DNA of 64,000 nt, from positions 124,001 through 188,000 of the forward strand of contig NW_027191467.1 in NCBI RefSeq assembly GCF_011745625.1, given 5' to 3'. The notes beneath the pieces were generated by a model. The model saw only the letters and a program-made list of their open reading frames with translations, was not told the DNA's origin and did not search any database. The DNA is from Cladosporium halotolerans. Taxonomy: Eukaryota. The position numbers were made by a program, and so were the translations under genes. Shown in pieces: positions 3,382 to 28,543 of this stretch. Numbering within the stretch: the first letter of the stretch is position 1; the number at the start of each line of letters is the position of its first letter.

Positions 3382-3873
3382 TGGATTGTGGGAGATATCA
3401 TCAGTAGGGTTCGGATAAGCCATTAAGGTCAACGCGTAAGCGTGCGCAGACTGCTCGCAAGCCGACCTCATCCTGTTTCCAACCGTTTTCGTGACTGCGA
3501 TTTTCACATCAGTGTGCAACACAAGATTAATGCCAAAGGCCGCCGCCCAATCGATCTGTCAATTAGGTGCACAGATCCAAATCCAAAGAAAGGTCGGTAA
3601 CGCCATGGTCAGACCGCCTTCGAGCTTGAGGGTATTTGAATTTGTCAGCCCCGCTCTTAAAGTTCATTGATAGAAACACATTGGTCTGTCGCACAACCCT
3701 AGCAAGCCATGAGCTGTCGCTTGAACTTTAAAAGGTCTATATAAAAGCAAGCTGTCCGCTACTCCTGCGAGAAAGTAGGCACAATTCACTGTTTCATTCT
3801 TTCGGTACTAGGCCAGCACGCAATCGACATTCGCTACACACCCAATCACATAGCTTCAGCTAGCCCAATCAGC

Positions 3874-4502
3874 ATGGCAACCACCCTATATGACATGAGG
3901 TACGAAACCCATGGCGACGGCTAGATGTGTCTACCATGCTAATTCAGCTGCTAGTGAGCACTAACCTCGTAGAAACCCTACCTGCACTCAAGCTATAAGA
4001 CTCACCCAATCCAGGCATCCCGCTCTTCATCCGCGGTCTCACGCAACTCTCCCACGTCCTCTCCAAAGGAGAATCGTGGGCCAAAGAAAACAGCAAAGCC
4101 CCCGACGAGCTCCTCCAAGCCCGTCTCGCCCCGGACATGCAGCCGCTGCGCTTCCAAATCCACTTCGCCTGCAACAGCGCCAAAGCCGTGCTCTCGCGCG
4201 TCGCGGGCTTCGAGTGGGTCGCCGAGAAAGACGACGAGACGACGCTGGCGCAGATGCAGGAGCGGCTGGCGCGCACGGTGGCTTTGCTAAGGACTGCCGA
4301 GGACAAGAAGGAGGCGTTTGTGGGAAAGGAGGAGCTGGAGGTCACGGTCGCGATACCGGGCCGGGAGTTGAAGTTCCCGGCGCTGGTTTACTTGCAGTTC
4401 TGGACGGTGCCGAACTTTTTCTTCCATATTACGACGGCGTATGATATTCTGAGGCACTTGGGGGTGCAGATTGGGAAGCCGGATTTTTTGGGCGCGCCTT
4501 AG
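3874..4502 (+). CDS. DUF1993 family (DinB-like helical) protein; first intervening sequence is a stwintron
   Basis: Spliced product MATTLYDMSIPLFIRGLTQLSHVLSKG...ARLAPDMQPLRFQI...PNFFFHITTAYDILRHLGVQIGKPDFLG matches the DUF1993 pattern. Exon 1 is 3874-3898, exon 2 is 4015-4502. TATA-like TATATAAAA near 3738. Confidence 0.88.
3899..4014 (+). other. Spliceosomal twin intron (stwintron), [D1,2] type with an equivalent [A2,3] route
   Basis: G|GTACGA(3900)...GCTAAT...TAG(3954)|TGAGC...ACTCAC...CAG(4014)|G. Excising 3900-3954 rebuilds the donor GTGAGC. Only the two-step excision keeps exon 1 in frame with exon 2. Confidence 0.8.
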
Positions 4503-4960
4503 GAGGTCTTGCGGTGACTAGGAGTGCCATGTTCATGGCTTGCAGGAATCGTGGATGGAATCACAGTCAATGAGTACGCATAGAATGATATCAATGTCGA
4601 TTTCAGCTCCTGAAGACATCCACAACGCGTGATTTTGGATTCATTCCTCGAGAGCGCCCGCGTCACGCGTGGAAATTGATCGGCGTTTGCTGGACCTCGG
4701 CTCCTGTCCTCCTCGGCCCTCGAAAGCCCGCCGCCTTTGGTATCCACCACTCACAGCCTCACCATTACTATCTCCCATCAACAGTCGACCGGCCTCGGTA
4801 GTACAGCGATACACGCATATATTCACAAGCATTACCTATCCCTCTTCTCAGCGGATTGCAGACCCGTATTCCGCGTGCCGCACATCTCACAAATCACTCG
4901 CGCCCGAACCAGACAAGCACGCGCCAACGAACCATCAATTGCCGATAGAGACCGCCCACC

Positions 4961-17823: not shown

Positions 17824-20800
17824 ATGAAGCTCACTACCATACTCGCGACGATGCCATTCGGCATGGTTGCGGCCTTGACAGCGTCCGGTAGTCTGGTCTA
17901 CTATGGCAATTCGTCCGCGCAAACCGCCACTGCCATCAATCCGTAAGTACATCATTCAGTTGGCTCCTTACGCACATGGCTATCATTCGTTTTCCTTTCC
18001 TTCTTCTCGATACTCGACATTGGTCAAGCCTTCCAATGTCAAGCCGCTGCCTCGTGTGGCGGCAGCCTGTCTGGCTCCGGCCTCGCTCATCAATGCATCG
18101 AACAATCTTCAGGGCACGCCAAAATCTAGAACGCATTCAGCAGAGCATCAGTGCCTTCGCGGTCATCAAATTACTCCAAAATGCCATACTCTTCAAAACG
18201 CCCTTCCAAGGACCCATTGCCCGACAGGACTTATTCACCGCACATCAGCACATCGACAGCAAGCGGGAACTGTCCGCAAAAAGGACAGACATCGCTTCGC
18301 GAGCAACGCTCAAACATACTCGGGCGTCGGAAGGGTTCCACCGCTCTCGAAGGGGCAGTTCTCGGCAAGGAGGAGAGGAAGAAGCGAAATGACTCTGCAG
18401 TGGCATTACAGCCAGGGAAATCTCTGGCCGAACTTCAAGCAGAAGAGATGACCTTCCGAACGCTCCACAAGAAGATCAAACAAGCACTTTGCGATAAAGC
18501 CATGTCATTTTCGCTGGTCCGAAGAATACTCTCATCATGGGAAGATAACCTGGCGCCTGAAGCTGCCGCCAGGACTGTTCACGCTTTGGATGCTGGCACT
18601 CGACCACACCTCGCTCGTCATCTTTTCGTTTTGGTCATTCTGTTTTTGATCGTTTTCGGTTCATTGTATGTCTTGGTCAGTTACTTACTCAATGCCACTA
18701 GAGTGACCGCCCAGTGCAACACCAGTACGGTCTATTACCCGGTATTCGTGACCGAGACCTACACTACGTCGATCTTCGTGTCTCCCACCGCTTGCACCAC
18801 TGCCTCAGGCGACATCTTCCCTGCTGCTACTGATTCTGGAGGCTTGCCTACGGTGACCCACACTTCAACCTCAACATCAACCTACTTCAAGACGACCACA
18901 CTTACCGTCCTCGCTGTCACCTCAACTGAGCCTCCGAAATCCACGTCAAGCTCCCTGCCCTTCATTTTCGAGGTCACTTCAGGTACGACTCGATGGATCA
19001 ATGGGGTCTCACCTTCAAGTGGTGCCTCTTTGACTACGGCTACAACTACCGTCCTGGTGCCGCCAAGCTCGCTGTTGACCCCATCACCGGCATCCACCAC
19101 GACCTTGGGTACGAGTCAATCGCACACAACCACTCTCACTTCGCAAGGCGGTGTGTCGACCTCCACTAGCTACGTCAGTCCTGACCTGACCATCACTACT
19201 CACATCACACGGACCAGCACTGTCACCGCGCTGACAACCACCACACGTTCGTCCTTTGGTGGCATGGGCTCTGCTGGTTGGAACACGACAGATTCAGTCG
19301 ACCCAAGCCAGGCCTCGACAACTTCTCATCCTACACATGAAGCCGTACCAACTACAGCTACTGTCTCTTTCTTCTGGGCTTCCTCAGGTGGTCACACCTA
19401 CTCGACTAGTACAAGGGTCATCACCACAACCCTGTATCGTCCAATCCCGGTGACTAGCTCAAGCTTCATGCCTTCTGAATCCTCCCTACTCGGGACAGGC
19501 TCTGAGTCTGTGACAACAAGTGTTGTTGAGAGTGGAATCACTTCTTTGCCCAGCTTGCCGTCTTCTAACTTGAGCACAAACGGGAACTTTTCTATCTTGC
19601 CAATTACGCCTTCTGGCAGCGGTCAAGTCTCACCAGCTACTGCATCAGCGATCACGTCCATTGGCTCTGCTCCATCGCATGGTCTGACTCAACTTCCCTC
19701 AAGCATGGAGGGTCAGCGCTCCGCGAGCGTCCTAACAGCTACAAACGCCACAGTCATCCCTCCCGTGAACTCTCCCGCTACTTCTTTACAGAGCACACCT
19801 ACTGCTTCGTTCGGCAACCTGACTATGACAAGTACGAGACCGCAGACGTCGGTCTCTGAACCTTCGGTTACAGCAAATTCGACAGCGGTAACTCCAGCTA
19901 CACAATCTCCCAGCTCATCCCTCGCGAGCTCAGGTATCGTGAATCCAACCACGCAGACGACGCCTTTTCTGTCAATCAATACGTCTGGCGGAAGCATCGT
20001 CAGTACTTCTCATCTTACCAACCAAACAAGCTCGCTCCCCAAAGTTAGTGGCTCCGCCAGTGCTTCATTGACGAGCACAAGTTCCGCCACTCCAAGCACC
20101 CAGTTGCTGTCTTCAATCGGTACATCATTGGCCAATGGTCAAGGTCCGAGGCCAAAGTCTCCGACGACTCCGTCCTCGAGCTCTAACTCCGCTCCTACGG
20201 GTTCTACGTCGTCTAGTACGACTTTCTCAACCAGCAAGACAAGTGCGTCTGCTTCGACATCCCCGTCTGCATGCGGCGAGCATGGCGATTTCGTCCTCGA
20301 CTTCGATGATTTGCCAAGCTTCTCAGGCGACAAAGACATTACACAAGCGCCGCCAATCTTCAGCCCTTACCATCACTTGACCTTCAGTAGTGGATATGTG
20401 TACGCGCCGCAGGACAAGCAGCCTTTCGCACCTCACTCAGCAAATCAACTTGCGGTCTTCCTGGCGTCTGGAAACGGGACCAACGATACCACTTGGCACC
20501 AAAACGGCATGTCAGCCAATGTACCCCGTTCGGAGCCCGGTGAGATCACCGACGGTCCCTATGACGGCTTGTCCGCCTTCTGGTTCAATGCTCGCGGTGC
20601 TTGGCTTGGCTGCGACAACAATGGCCCTGAGCCTTGCGTTTTCAACGTCACAGGCTGGACATGGAACTCCCAAATTGGCGACGAAGTTGCTACCTACAAT
20701 ACTCAGATCGAGGTGCCGGCATGCTCAACTTCTTCGGGCTGCAAGCTCCAGCACGTCAACTTCCCAGACAGCTTCCGCGGCTTAAGCGGCATTCAGATCC

Positions 20801-20976
20801 AGGCATTCGCCAATGGAAAGCCACGCATGTTCTTCATGGACGATCTCGAGCTAGGCTGGTACGACAACAGCTGTGCCGCTGGCATGCAGCGCATGGGCCG
20901 TCCAGGCAGCTTTGGCGGCCCTGGCCGCAGCGGTGGCGGAAGGAAGAGGGTGGTGCGCCGCTCCCTCATGCGTTAG
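17824..20976 (+). CDS. Secreted/cell-surface Ser/Thr-rich (mucin-like) protein with a Cys-containing C-terminal domain (DUF7371-like)
   Basis: Signal-peptide exon 17824-17942 (MKLTTILATMPFGMVAA...), donor GTAAGT at 17943, acceptor TAG at 18701 restoring frame into the long ORF. Long S/T tract followed by CGEHGDFVLDFDDLP...WLGCDN...FFMDDL...WYDNSC. Confidence 0.7.
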
Positions 20977-21312: not shown

Positions 21313-24300
21313 TCAATCGTCCCCAGCAAAAGCCCTGCTAAACTTGACCTGCGAACTGAAGTCCTCCCAACCCGCCACGCGATTCCTGCCCATTGCCCTA
21401 GCCACCTCACTCTCGCTTCCATCTCCGCCTGACGAGTACAACCACGACTTCGGCCTCAGACTAAACGCCCCTCCCTCCCTCACAAGCTGCACCCTCTCCG
21501 CCCTCACCTTCCCGTCCTCATCCGACGCCACGGCCGCCTCGGGCGCTTCGATCTCCATCGCCTCGGGTTCCGTCAGTGCAGTCGCGCGCTGCTCGCGATG
21601 CTCAAGAATATCGACGTCGATCGTGTGCAGCGCGCAGACGCGGTAGACGGAGATTCGCTTTTGCTGACCGTGCCGGCGCACGCGGCCGATCGCCTGCGCC
21701 ATCGTGGAGTCGTAGCCGTATTTACTGTCGCGTAGCAGGGGCGAGAGAAAGATGACGTGATTCGCGGCTTGCAGGTTGGAGCCGGCGGCGGTCTCGTCTG
21801 AGGCGTTGAGCACGATTACTGTGTCGGCGTTTGAGCGGAAAGAGGAGATCTGCTGGCCGGCTGTGGTTGAGTGAAAGACGATGGCAGAGGAGAAGGTGGT
21901 GGCAGAAAGCGCGGCTTCGACTTGGTGGAGTTGCTCGGCGAATTGGACGAAGAGGATTGCTTTTTCACCTTTGGACTTGATTCCGTTCAGGAGGCGGATG
22001 GCGGCTTCGAGTTTAGCCCCGTGCGAGGTGGTCTGTGTGGAAGCACTAAGGGTATGAGACCAGAGCAGGTGATAGTCGTGCATTGATGCGCCACAGTCTC
22101 CGGCGCGGCATTGGGTTTCGTGCTTGTTTTTTGAGATCGTATAGCATTCTTCGCAGACGCGGTGGCCGCAGAGAGCTGAGACAGCGATGCTTTGTCTGTG
22201 AGTAGCAGAACAGTCCACGCCGTCGCATTTGGTCGCTCGTCCGGCAGCTTCGTGGACGTTACGCACATTGCTAATGTAGCGCTTCGAGCGAATCGATGTA
22301 AGAAGACTCTTCGCATGAGCATTCACGGACGATGTGAGTTCTCTGGCCTTCTTCTCTTCCTTGCTGTTCTTGCCTTCGTTCTCACTTCCGTCATCATTTT
22401 TGGCCAATTTCGATCGCTTCGTTTTCTTAGGGCCATTGGCCTTTAGCTTACGAGCCTTCGTGTTGACGCTCGAACGAAGCGCCTCCTGGACATGGCGGAT
22501 CGTTTCATGGTCGCCTAGGGCTTGTTCATCAAGCAAGGTCGACGCCATCTGCTCCAGGGATTCGTTGTAAATCTTCACATCGTGTTGCGCGGCATGGCAT
22601 GCTACCTTCAAGTCCCCAAGGGCTGTATTGATCTCTGCTTGACGCGCCGCAGACATCTGCATCAAATCTACTCCCTCTGGCAGGAAAGCTGCGTCTCTGG
22701 TCAACGCCTCTTCCGCAGTCTGCACGTCTTCGATCGCTGCCGTGAATCTCTTGTCACGGACGGTCGTCTTAGCACTCTTAGCTTTCCGAATGTTCATGTC
22801 TTGAGAGGCGAGTTGCTGTGAGAGTTCGGTATAGGCAGCTTGGTGGGCCATATCCAACGTGACTGGAATCAGATAGTCATCGTACGTCATTTCGTCGCCA
22901 TCCATGATGTTTTGGCGAACGAAGGCATCCAACAAGTCTTGAGCAACCTCGTGAATTCTCTCGTGCATGCAATCCGACGCCACTTCCCGCATAGCATCAA
23001 ATCTCTCGAAGTCAGTCATGTCTTTGCGAAGAGCTCGGATATTTCTCTGTGCCATCACTCGTGCAGTGTCACTACCGATGCGTAGACGGATGCCCAGTAG
23101 GCCAGCGATTTGCGCGATGTCATAAGCATCGGAGAGAGCAGGCGTACCACTCAGGCCCCAGCGCTTATCTGCCTTCAACGCTTTCAGCGAGGCGTACTCG
23201 CGTGGGGTATATTGATGGAACTCATCGACAATGATGCGATTGAAGTAGAACATTTCGAAGAGGGGGTGCCTGAGGCCGTCTGTAGGGATAGATTTGGCTG
23301 CCGCCTTCACGGCCTGGCTTTTGTTCTTGCCCTCAACAAAGTCCCTACCGACGAGGCGGCGCGATGGTACTGTTGCCTTGAATTCTTCACTCTCGATCAA
23401 CTCGGCATACCGTTTTCGAACATGATTCTGAAGTGACTTCAGGCCTTCCTTCCTCAAGATTTCGAGGTGAGAGGGCACTTCTTTGCAGGCGTGTTTGAGC
23501 CACTTGGAAAACGCCCGTCCAGAGTTCGTTGCTGGCCCCGGCATAGCAACAAAATTTGCAAGCCTCTCGGCATATTCTGCCTGGCCAAGCACGGTCCGGT
23601 TGACAAGGACGATCTTCGCCTTTTCAAAGTCTTCGATCGAGTACTTGTTGAGATCTCTCCAAGCGCTCACTGTCAAAACGCTTTTGGCGTACCCAAGCTT
23701 TTCGTGGATCTCGGACGCCCATTGTTTGATCAGGGTATGGGGAGCCACGATCAATGTAGCTTTGGTTGGAATGAGACCTTGAGGTTGGCGTTCACGGAGA
23801 TCGGCCAAGATATCCTGCCCGCTGGTGAGGTGCGAGTGGATCAACGCAAGACTGGTGATTGTCTTGCCGAAGCCCGGGTGGTCTGCGCAGATACCGCCGC
23901 GCACGCTGACCTGCATGTGAGCACGCACTTCAGCTCGCCAATGCAGAGCCGGTAAGATCGCCTCTTCGGCTTCCTCAATCGTGAATGCTTTCCCAGAACC
24001 CACTTCTTGTTGTTGCATCCACTGAAGGACCGAGGCTTGTTTCGGAAACAGCACACAGCTCATGCCAATATCCTGAGGAGCAACCTTGCCTTCCGTTGAC
24101 CGGAGTGTGAATGGCTTGGGATTCGCATTGCTCGCTAGGCCCTGCTCCAGCTTCCATGTGAGCTTGATGGCGGAATCTTGGGCTGGGAGGCGAGCGATCG
24201 CTCGGTGCGCGAGAGAAGTCAGGTTCAGAGCAAAGTCGATCGTTGCATGATTGTCGCGTTGCGTCACTTGAAAGAACATTGGCGACGGGCGGCTCTTGAT

Positions 24301-27300
24301 GCATCGCTCGTACGTCGCTGCGCTTTTCGGATCTTCGTAGGGTTTGATCGTTTTTGCATCGTGCAGGACAAATCGCAGGCTAGGCTTGGCCGGCGCGCAA
24401 TTCACGCATTGTAAGGATTCAAAATCGAGCGTCCGCCACTGCGAACAGGGCAGCTGCCTTCTCATCGATTCGAGAGCGTACGCGTACTTCGTGAAGAATG
24501 CGACGTCCTTGGCATCCACATCCTGGCAACCCATGCTTTTATGTGCAGCACCATGGTTATCAGAGCTAAGGTCGCATCTGAGAACCAACTCAGCCTCTCT
24601 GCAGTGACCTTGGTGAGTTGAAGAATTCGACGATACTGGGATAGAGATCTGGACTTGTGGATCGATTGAATGAAGTCGAAGGTCATCAGCAAAGCCCCAA
24701 TTTCCAGCAAGTGTGATCTTTGGACTCGAGAAAATTTTGCCAGTGGCCGATGGCGTCCAAGCCGGTTCAACAGAAGCGATAACGGGTCTCTGATCAGTGT
24801 GGTCGAGACGCTCGTGTTCAGTTGAGAAAACAAAGCTGTCGAACTTCGGGTCTCCGGTGCGGCTTGGGTTCAGAAAAAGATAGATCTGATGGTCTTCTTC
24901 ACTACCCAGCCTCTTTGTACAAGCTATCACCGGCGGTACCGCACTGCGGGAGTGCTTGGTAAGAGCCGCTCAGGTTGTAGCCGACTTTGTCATGAACCTC
25001 TGTGGGGCATTTGACGTTGAGAACGCTCCACACCTTTTGATCCCGGTAATCAGGTAGCTCAATCCTAGCAAGCCAAGAAGTAATGCGCTGACCGTCGCCT
25101 TCTATTGCCAGTTTGAAGCTCTCTGCCGTATGATTGCGAATTTTCCACTCGATGCCATCAAATAGCGTAGTGGAGCATCTCCCGACAGCAATAGGCTGTT
25201 CGAGAATCGCTCTTATCTTGCTGTTCACCGGCAGGCTGTCATCCGGCAATGCGAACACTTGCCAGTACGCTTGCTCATCGCCGAGTACAAGCTCAAGCCG
25301 AGCCGAAGGTGCTCGAAAGATAGCCCTCCATAAATGCGTTCTCCTCAATTGCGAGAAGCGGAACGTGCTGCTCAGGGCTTCTCTCGCAGCGTCTGCATAG
25401 CTGCCCTCGCCTGAAACGCATGAGACCGTGGAGTCGCTATTGAATGACAGACATAGGGGCAAGATCGATCGAAGACGTTGCTCAAATTCGACGGGACTAC
25501 CCCGTGGGGAGGGGCATAGTTGGTAGTTGTGTGCCGGGTTGCCGCCACAAGATACGCATGTCGAATGGCCGCATTCTTGACATTTTTGGATGGGCTTCTG
25601 AGACAATCCGTTGGTACTCTCACACAGACAGCGTCGCGCTGACATGGCAGCGCAGGTCATGAGACCAGCTGAAGGAATGTCGTTATTCATCTCGGGAGTG
25701 TGGACGGGTTCGGTCAACGTCTCGGTAATCGCGGTTCTTGTGGTGCCTGGGGTCGCTCTATCATTGGTCGCATAAGAGCCTTGTCCCTTAAGGACAGTTT
25801 GTCCGCACATGATCGCGGCAAGAATCGCAGAGCCCACAGAAGTGGTTGACATGGCGTTGCCTGCTAAGCTTTGAATTTCGGGCCCGGTCTCTGTCGTGAA
25901 CGAAATCTTGTTCAGTGGTAGACCTTGCAGTCCCAATAGCTCTTCTGAGCTCAGGGAACGACCAGCGTCAGACGCAAAGAACATGCCACTAGGCGTTACA
26001 CACGGGGCTATGCCGAAGTGTGTGTTGTCCTCGAAAACGTCAATATTCTGAGAAACATCCCAGACTCTTGTTTTGTGCCGAACATCGAAAATTGTCGCTT
26101 TCCGGAGCAATGAGATATCCATATGGTCCCGGACACGCTCCACCTGCTTGCGGTACCATGACGGGATGCCATTCTCCGGTATGTTCATGGTTCCACTCTC
26201 AGACCAAAAGGTCAGAGGTCTGGCATTTCCTAGGCGATGTTTTTGGCGATACTGGATGTGGCGAAGCTCGCACTTTTCCCAATTGTACTCCCTCGTAAAA
26301 TCTTCCAAACTGTCGTGGTTTTGAGTACGAACCTTGTCATTAGGAAGCATGAAATCTGTCACAGGACTACTGGCATAGCGCCGAAAATCTGCCATGGTCG
26401 ATTGCCATTTAGCGCCCATTCCCTTCGTGGAAGACGCATCCGCTGCTTTGGATTTGTCAAAGCATACTAGGTACCCACGTCGGCGAGTGTGAGGGAGGTA
26501 GAAGTCCTTTGTATCCAAGATAACTCCGCCAACTTCGTAGCCTATGTCGCGATAGCATTCGATCATCATGTCCCAAGGGCTGCTGACGACATTCTCAATA
26601 ATCACAACTGCGGGACGAAACGCTTTCACATAGGATAGTACGCCAAACCACGTACTGCTGGATTCGCCACCCTCATCTTGATCCAGAGACTTCCGCGAGT
26701 TGTTCAGCTTAGAGAAATCGACGCAAGACGTTCCTGCAATCAGGATGTGTACGTTTCCCGGAATGGGCAGTTTTGCTCCGTATACAGTCGTCGCTGTTGG
26801 GACCTCATTGTTGACGGCTTCAGTGATCTCGCTGATGTCACGGAAGATGATTGGCGGGTTGAAGTTGCGTTCGATATAAGCCTGCTTGTACGGCACGATC
26901 TCTGCTGAGAACAAATGATCAATTTTAAGCTCAGGGGCACCTGCTGATTGCAGAGCATCCTGAACCATTTCCAGTGCCAGTAGTGGACTCTCCGTGCCAG
27001 AGCACATGGTCGCAACACGTAGTGGCTGAGGGAATGAAGCCAGAGCTTCCCTCAGGCCCATGGTCAGAGCTTGAGCCGTGATGTCCCTGAAGATACAATT
27101 GATATCGGAAAGTGGAGGGAGACTGGTGTCCAGCCCTTTGGGTTTCCCCTTCCCACGCTTGTATATCTTCGACATGCCTTCCGCGGTGGCTTTTCCTGTC
27201 TTTTTCCCAGTCTTGCTAAGACCACGTGGTCCTGAGGCGCTCGGCTTCGTGACAGATGACGATTTGGCTCCTTTGACCTTGGCGTTTTTCATCATGATGG

Positions 27301-28117
27301 CAAGTCCGTTTGTCATGCTCAAATGGACGTCTTCGGCGTCACTTTCGGAAGAATCTGACCCGTCTGCACTGGCATGGTCTGATCTTTCATCTTCTCCTTC
27401 TCCTTGCGAGTGGCCTTCGAAGTCCGACTCATCGGGGGGCGATTGTCTGGCGACCCGCTGCCGTCTGTGAGTTGACTTTGGCGGCTCAAACTCCATTTCT
27501 GAGTCGTTCAATGGGTCCACATAACAGGTTTGCTGCGCAGCAGACCGTCTAGGGCGTCGGCTTGTGTGAGATGCTGCGCAATGCAATACGGCTTCGTACT
27601 CGTCCGGTTTAGGGACCACGTGTTTGACGCCGGGACTGTGCGACCAACTTTTGTGTCCATCCCCGCGCCTATCATTCCCATCTCTTCTCTTGAGTGCACT
27701 CGGGACAGCACACTCGGCTTTCGAACCTTTTTTGTTGGCTTGTGTTCGAGGAGCTGAATAGAAGAAGTCCGAAATGAACCCACGTTCCGGATTTTGCTTG
27801 CGCGTTCGCGGACCTTCGACGATGAGCGGTCTCTCGTAGACTGGTTGTTGTCTCAGCTCAGTGAGGACTTGCGGGGACTCATGCTTGTTGGTGAATGAGC
27901 GATGTTGTGTTGTGGCTTCGCCGGAAGCACCAGAGTCACATGGTATAAGCACGCATTCGAGCTTGCGTCGCTTTTTGCCCGGAGAGACTGGGAAAGGCTC
28001 CGGTTGCGACCATTTTCGTTTCGTGAAGTGCTTGCCGGACGACGGATGTGGGACGGAGATTTGGTCGGGATCGGAATCCAGCAACATCGATATATCTGCT
28101 GGAGGCATTTTATCCAA
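21313..28117 (-). CDS. DNMT5: DNMT5-type C5 cytosine DNA methyltransferase fused to SNF2 ATPase and RING; split by a 1-nt frameshift at 24914-24916
   Basis: MTase motifs ATMCSGTESP, IAGTSCVDFS, IIENV, YLPHTRRRGY, AGNAM. SNF2 motifs ADHPGFGKT, VDEFH, LSGTP, QAIGRVRRHGQ. RING CDGVDC..CGHRVCEEC..CRAGDC. The two ORFs (24902-28117 and 21313-24930) overlap in different frames. Confidence 0.9.
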
Positions 28118-28543
28118 GAGTGCGGCTACATGAGCCTGGATATGATTCTTGTGGAGTATTTTATGTCATTACGCAGCACTTGTTGGTTGCGTGGCCACAG
28201 AGCATCTGTTTCTTGCGGAAGTGTTCGGCCAGCGTGCGTTTGGGCGACGCGTTCGTGGACGCGACTGGAATTGCGAAAAGCTCCAAGGGCCGTTGCCGAA
28301 GATCAAACGCCGACGTCAGTGAAGGATATGCTGCACCCATCATCAGAGCAGGCATCGCAATTGAGGTGGGCAGGAGCAGGATGAGTTGCAACAGCTGAAC
28401 AAGAAGCGCCAAAAACTACTCGAACCTTTAACCAGGCGAACGCCATGGAAGAGCGCCGGCGCTTTTATAAATACCTTAGCATGGCATCCTCACTCCAGCA
28501 TGTGCCTGATTGCGAGAGACGTCATGTGAGCATCCTCATTGAA

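Follow-up and report, generated by a model that had tools for sequence, protein, structure and literature searches.

The DUF1993 gene of the analysed window, by which the whole stretch of 64,000 nucleotides is meant, raises the question of how a coding sequence that begins with an ATG at position 3874 is joined to the domain-encoding exon downstream, when no single intron leaving from the donor at position 3900 keeps the reading frame. The initial annotation had proposed that a spliceosomal twin intron (stwintron) separates the two coding parts. In the available part of the text of PMC5587772, a stwintron is defined as two U2 introns overlapping at a terminal G, and a [D1,2] stwintron with G on either outer flank qualifies as an [A2,3] stwintron as well. 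The evidence presented here makes it highly probable that intervening sequence 1 of this gene is an alternatively excisable [D1,2]/[A2,3] stwintron, composed of two U2 introns that overlap at G3954, and the initial interpretation is supported.

Layout of the DUF1993 gene and gene content of the window

On the plus strand, a TATA-like box read from the sequence (3738-3747), which may serve as a promoter element, is followed at a distance of about 45-55 nt by the starts of the RNA contigs, located at 3792 in run X4 and at 3803 in run X1. The 5' untranslated region (3792-3873, plus strand) is covered by RNA contig from the X4 start onward and contains no ATG before the one at 3874. The coding part of exon 1 (3874-3898, plus strand) comprises eight codons and A3898, the first base of a Ser codon, with the upstream side ending as ...ATGAG at 3899. 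The remaining DUF1993 coding sequence is located in exon 2 (4016-4502, plus strand), with the stop codon TAG at 4500-4502 and RNA cover over 4015-4514. Within this exon, the segment 4017-4499 corresponds to Pfam PF09351 (DUF1993) over profile positions 6-161 of 161, with an E value of 9.4e-53 and a score of 178.9 bits against a Pfam gathering cut-off of 23.4. Extension of the DUF1993 frame further upstream is blocked, as initially claimed, by an in-frame TAA (3996-3998), and the open reading frame starts at 3999.

The gene content of the window is fungal, with genes for the RNA polymerase I large subunit, PRP3, VID27, PMT, Exo5 and a cytochrome b5 domain, of which VID27 is closest (74-78%) to named Dothideomycetes including Hortaea, Teratosphaeria and Baudoinia. 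Elsewhere, the minus strand carries two long ORFs that are placed end to end and overlap (21313-28165). One of them (24902-28165) encodes a C-5 cytosine DNA methylase domain and the other (21313-24969) an SNF2 ATPase with a helicase C domain, and together they resemble a single gene for an SNF2-fused DNA methyltransferase, presumably of the DNMT5 kind. A 948-aa open frame on the plus strand (18130-20976) carries a DUF7371 domain at its end (E 1.4e-67), while no Pfam match at E 1e-5 was obtained for its first 700 residues.

Single-intron models and the parts of the proposed twin intron

Single-intron models were enumerated by combining all GT and GC donors with all AGs between 3860 and 4040, for introns of at least 40 nt. 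Donor 3900 is used by none of the 18 open, in-frame models obtained in this interval, which bears out the initial claim that its pairing with the AGs at 3947, 3954, 3972 or 4014 yields no in-frame single intron. The AGs at 3924, 3958, 3992 and 3999, missing from that earlier list, equally give none. The 18 in-frame models, whose number rises to 28 if ATGs from 3574 onward are allowed, rely on GC donors or on other ATGs, and the cleanest among them combines a start at ATG 3911 with a single intron at 3954-4014.

The intervening sequence can instead be resolved into two complete introns, and the coordinates, frames and splice signals that the initial annotation had assigned to them all check against the sequence. 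The 5' constituent U2 intron (3900-3954, plus strand, 55 nt) has the donor GTACGA, the branch motif CTAAT (3939-3943), whose A3942 lies 12 nt before the intron end, and the acceptor TAG. The 3' constituent U2 intron (3954-4014, plus strand, 61 nt) has the donor GTGAGC (3954-3959), the branch motif CTCAC (4001-4005) with A4004 placed 10 nt before the intron end, and the acceptor CAG. Their overlap consists of a single G, G3954 on the plus strand, which is both the last base of the AG of the 5' intron and the first base of the GTGAGC of the 3' intron, and the total excised amounts to 116 nt. GTACGA as the 5' donor and CTCAC as the 3' branch motif both deviate from the commonest fungal consensus.

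Both outer flanks of this arrangement are G. G3899 (plus strand) stands directly upstream of the 5'-most donor (5'-G/GT) and is either base 1 of the external donor, when the sequence is processed as [D1,2], or exonic, when it is processed as [A2,3]. G4015 (plus strand), following the 3'-most acceptor, either serves as base 2 of the exonic Ser codon ([D1,2]) or completes the external acceptor TA/G ([A2,3]). In the [D1,2] order, the internal intron 3900-3954, which by its sequence is a complete U2 intron of viable length, would leave first, and the fusion of G3899 to TGAGC would rebuild the donor GTGAGC of an external intron having its own branch motif and the CAG ending at 4014, as predicted initially. 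The 61-nt external intron would then be removed in the second step. In the [A2,3] order, 3954-4014, a canonical intron in the primary transcript, would be removed first, CTA joined to G4015 would create the acceptor TAG, and the second step would remove a 55-nt external intron. Either order would eliminate 116 nt and give an identical mRNA, in which the mature Ser codon consists of A3898, one G and C4016.

Directly behind GTGAGC lies a perfect branch consensus ACTAAC (within 3959-3972), 8 nt before a TAG ending at 3972. Donor 3900 and this TAG delimit a canonical, frame-shifting intron of 73 nt, a possible non-productive competitor; it was seen in no contig, and the ACTAAC motif is absent from the two orthologous loci described below.

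Removal of 116 nt in RNA and retention of the intron in DNA

Contigs from four public runs (X1, X4, X15 and X18) were aligned to 3600-4800, giving 8 pieces, and a joint was regarded as bridged when at least 31 letters were present on both of its sides. A 633-nt contig from the metatranscriptome RNA of X4 passes from 3792-3898 directly to 4015-4514, with 116 nt skipped and with 107 and 500 letters flanking the joint. In run X1, RNA by guess, the same joint recurs in a short contig of 59 nt with 29 and 30 letters on its sides, which counts as weak support because these flanks fall under the 31-letter threshold; bridging with at least 31 letters on both sides thus comes from one contig (X4) of one study. 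The mature junction predicted by the initial annotation (A3898-G4015, or equivalently G3899-C4016) is hence found in the X4 contig and in the short X1 contig. The X4 joint is ambiguous by 1 nt, so that the skipped segment ends either as GG..AG or as GT..GG, and neither corresponds to a single canonical intron.

This joint of 3898 to 4015 excludes all single-intron models as the main form. It bears directly on the model with a start at ATG 3911 and one ordinary intron at 3954-4014, under which ATG 3874 would head a short upstream frame. Such a model is canonical and in frame, but the X4 contig leaves 3792-3898 straight for 4015, and the main mRNA accordingly lacks 3899-3953. Together with the family profile and the orthologue L002, considered below, this renders a start at 3911 very improbable.

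DNA contigs retain the intron. The X15 DNA has 0 differences from the window, of which it is possibly the source, and the X18 contig, representing the DNA of a relative, differs at 51 positions over 1201 nt, with T3944C as the only change within 3899-4015 and no indel. A hidden indel that would let one intron suffice is hence present in neither of the two DNA assemblies (X15 and X18), and no other junction or start is seen in the contigs. At all their listed differences the RNA contigs match the X18 variants, and therefore the spliced RNA originates from a lineage with the intron in its DNA, its splice signals being the same. The source of the RNA is a close relative, approximately 98% identical and other than the window's own strain. 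Relative to the window, X18 is ~98% identical over the coding part and shows dense differences from 4515 (4515-4574), just behind the stop codon. Because of these dense differences, the X1 and X4 RNA contigs end as loose ends at 4514.

RNA libraries may contain DNA, and contigs by themselves are no proof of transcription, so the joined form might be argued to stem from an intron-less DNA copy, such as a retro-copy carried by the relative or by some other organism sampled in the metatranscriptome. This explanation is hardly credible in view of several observations. The contig begins about 45 nt behind the TATA-like box, as expected of an mRNA, and its loose end after 4514 matches the X18 divergence from 4515 and marks no boundary of a DNA copy. 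The copy present in the relative's DNA contig X18 bears the intron, and X1 contains, besides the joined form, an unspliced 175-nt contig covering 3870-4044.

Agreement of the joined protein with intron-less homologues

For a family profile, 109 of the 110 intron-less full-length homologues (P0011-P0120) were used, one having been excluded on the criteria of length and initial Met. The product of the 116-nt removal scores 214.2 bits and covers profile positions 1-167 of 168, and the joined protein can be aligned over its full length with the intron-less DUF1993 homologues. The best rival model, with ATG 3911 and intron 3954-4014, reaches 206.2 bits with a match beginning at position 7, and its N-terminus is off the family profile, as opposed to the match from position 1 for the joined product. 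Two GC-donor models obtain 203.6-204.2 bits and exon 2 alone 201.6 bits. The N-terminus encoded by exon 1 occupies profile positions 1-9 of the intron-less homologues, and it is at 3898 that the RNA joint leaves this exon. The Ser generated across the joint corresponds to S in 75 of the 83 homologues anchored on a P-x-F motif.

Conservation of the twin layout and mode of excision

A scan of metagenome contigs retrieved 80 loci, among which L001 and L002 are close, with exon 2 protein identities to the window of 61% and 63%, respectively. Comparison of intron structure in orthologues, proposed by the initial annotation, reveals that the twin layout is kept in both. In L001, the 5' intron measures 61 nt (GTACGG, CTGAC, CAG) with its CAG fused to TGAGC, and the 3' intron 59 nt (CTAAC, TAG, then G). 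In L002, the 5' intron measures 65 nt (GTAGGG, CTAAC, TAG) with the TAG fused to TGAGC, and the 3' intron 53 nt (CTAAC, CAG, then G), the shared G being 1446. Exon 1 ends with ...ATGAG in both loci, the upstream flank G is 1379 in L001 and 1381 in L002, and the downstream flank G is 1499 in both. AG fused to TGAGC is thus found in all three genes (window, L001 and L002), with GTGAGC invariant at the overlap, and the intron interiors are unalignable outside the splice and branch signals.

L001 also permits a canonical 111-nt single intron (1380-1490) that is in frame and adds 3 residues, and for this reason L001 alone does not force a twin intron. A gene finder would probably annotate this single intron at L001 1380-1490, hiding the twin layout. 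A comparable single intron from the exon-1 donor exists in neither L002 nor the window, and the equivalent of the ATG 3911 model is absent in L002.

The probability of obtaining such a layout by chance was estimated with dinucleotide-preserving shuffles of the intron interior, keeping the terminal signals, in 5000 trials per intron. Under a strict rule requiring an internal AG/GTRHGY, two usable branch motifs flanking it and both halves of at least 45 nt, the layout arose in 20/5000 shuffles for the window, 5/5000 for L001 and 5/5000 for L002 (0.1-0.4%). Under a loose rule the corresponding counts were 39/5000, 9/5000 and 27/5000.

These results bear on whether the 116 nt could leave in one non-canonical step, as GT..GG (3900-4015) or GG..AG (3899-4014), with the internal AG/TGAGC being irrelevant. 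The contig joint taken alone is compatible with one or two steps, and neither intermediate, lacking 3900-3954 or 3954-4014 alone, occurs among the 8 contig pieces, contigs being prone to drop rare forms. A one-step reaction is nevertheless improbable, since the internal overlap and a branch motif at 10-12 nt are kept in 3/3 genes despite the divergence of the introns, and a chance layout appears in just 5-20/5000 shuffles per intron. Both intermediates have moreover been amplified and sequenced in comparable stwintrons (PMC5587772, as far as its available text goes), and the use of the distal sites in one step results in a +1 frameshift and the wrong product (PMC5587772; PMC9024468, both in their available parts). 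In the latter source, direct distal-site splicing of stwintrons is described as infrequent mis-splicing with such a frameshift. At this locus, splicing between the canonical distal sites would excise 115 nt, with loss of the frame, and the contigs show the loss of exactly 116 nt instead.

Thus, 116 nt are removed from the RNA, the intron is intact in the DNA and the layout is conserved. Because the internal sites are canonical and conserved, and a canonical excision of 116 nt in one step is impossible, we infer that the twin intron is removed in two reactions, in whichever order.

Phylogenetic distribution and possible origin

A tree of 38 rows was calculated from the window, L001 and L002, each represented by its exon 2, together with L003, P0002-P0006, P0011, P0012 and 27 of the 108 proteins P0013-P0120, sampled as every fourth protein; the truncated P0001 and P0007-P0010 were left out, and the root is a midpoint root only. 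In this tree, the eight interrupted genes fall into a single clade (99/97), in which the window branches deepest, and therefore the three cases verified at the DNA level span the clade. The read-through ORFs P0002-P0006 are compatible with the twin layout at the protein level; being known from protein only, they were not counted as cases. The next group consists of L003 and P0012 with weaker support (93/60). L003, which has 49% identity and resides in gene-poor, eukaryote-like DNA, contains no intron at the corresponding place, and the nearest sister genes of the clade have none there. On this distribution, the twin layout most likely predates the clade of eight interrupted genes.

Beyond this small fungal-like group, the nearest DUF1993 homologues are bacterial, mostly from Pseudomonadota, with 42-49% identity (P0013-P0120), and a protein atlas look-up of exon 2 retrieved bacterial DUF1993 clusters only. 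In the midpoint-rooted tree, the eukaryote-like DUF1993 genes are nested in bacterial diversity. It is possible that DUF1993 was transferred from bacteria long ago and gained its intron afterwards.

Consequences for annotation

As stwintrons are uncommon and are mishandled by standard gene finders, the true protein N-terminus is lost. The initial statement that they are missed by gene finders fits the database record of this gene, as the spliced N-terminus is present in 0/10 of the closest database proteins (P0001-P0010, mostly ORF-style contig calls), which comprise five truncations of 121-122 aa from an internal Met and five read-through ORFs. Mis-annotation has likewise been reported by the authors of PMC5587772 for their own stwintron cases, in the available part of that text. 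A strict regular-expression scan for [D1,2] stwintrons on both strands of the window gave no match and also missed the codon-9 stwintron itself, owing to the final A of its 5' donor and to CTCAC as its 3' branch motif.

An RNA-backed stwintron that is kept across a clade provides a data point on the age of stwintrons, and the codon-9 stwintron is a candidate case of the shift of introns by one nucleotide that has been proposed as a mechanism. Knowledge of splicing as such is left unchanged by this case.

Comparison with known systems

Recursive (ratchet-point) splicing of long animal introns likewise proceeds in steps, the first of which restores a 5' splice site. Its splice-site elements are not interrupted by a further intron, whereas in the present gene the exon side supplies the G of the second donor and the two introns have one base in common. 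A distinction between stwintrons and recursive splicing is also drawn in the available text of PMC5587772.

Within fungi, the sister stwintrons of Hypoxylaceae and Xylariaceae (PMC8469720, PMC12403724 and PMC9024468, each in its available part) share the [D1,2] geometry. They are, however, multi-copy, sequence-similar and internally symmetrical, and the codon-9 stwintron is not of this repeated, introner-like type. A blastn search of its 117 nt against the 64-kb window returned only itself and chance 10-12-mers, hence no second copy, and the 117-nt fold is no better than that of shuffles (-19.9 kcal/mol as compared to a shuffle mean of -22.8, z = +0.88). Absence of a second copy in the window and of a special fold fits the class of "uniquely occurring", older stwintrons.

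The initial annotation had further supposed a probably unannotated stwintron in this gene family. A stwintron at codon 9 of DUF1993 has no record in the full-text stwintron and DUF1993 literature, with supplements covered in part; none of the papers retrieved in full text for DUF1993 deals with introns, and the PMC12403724 supplements, file 3 aside, have no DUF1993 entry. For the family as a whole the supposition has to be narrowed, because a DUF1993 stwintron at another position is already tabulated as "no 317", in a 173-aa gene of Hypoxylon sp. CO27-5 (Table S1 of PMC9024468, a source available in part). It likewise interrupts DUF1993 and is a [D1,2] stwintron marked YES for [A2,3], and it is a phase one intron and the sole intron of its gene. 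It differs in following 388 nt of coding sequence as compared to 25 nt, in its length of 212 nt (110 + 102) as compared to 116, and in its host, a member of Hypoxylaceae (Sordariomycetes) and not a Dothideomycete (PMC9024468). These differences in position, length and lineage point to an intron site of its own, in a gene that is paralogous or only distantly related. One may tentatively suppose, although the odds are somewhat against it, that the small, bacterial-like DUF1993 family of filamentous ascomycetes gained twin introns at two unrelated positions, at codon 9 in the Dothideomycete clade before its deepest split and near codon 130 in Hypoxylaceae, and that the codon-9 stwintron is in precisely the G-flanked state which has been proposed as intermediate when an intron shifts by one nucleotide. 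Relatives losing one half should then show canonical introns one base apart, in phase 1 and phase 2, respectively, and if the supposition were true, the intron-shift mechanism could be tested on a second natural case, independent of the first.

The closest parallels are the stwintrons of the Helminthosporium solani alternative oxidase gene and of Trichoderma reesei dhaoS (PMC5587772, in its available part), in which there is likewise an overlap of one G, both outer flanks are G and the same mRNA results from either order of excision. The constituent introns are of the usual fungal size in these systems, with 55 + 61 nt here against 66 + 88 nt in T. reesei. For H. solani and T. reesei both intermediates were sequenced (PMC5587772), whereas the present case is made from the layout and the mature joint. 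It further differs from these two in the gene affected (DUF1993), in the position (codon 9) and in the lineage (a Dothideomycete), and its assignment as a new example of an already described stwintron type is well supported.
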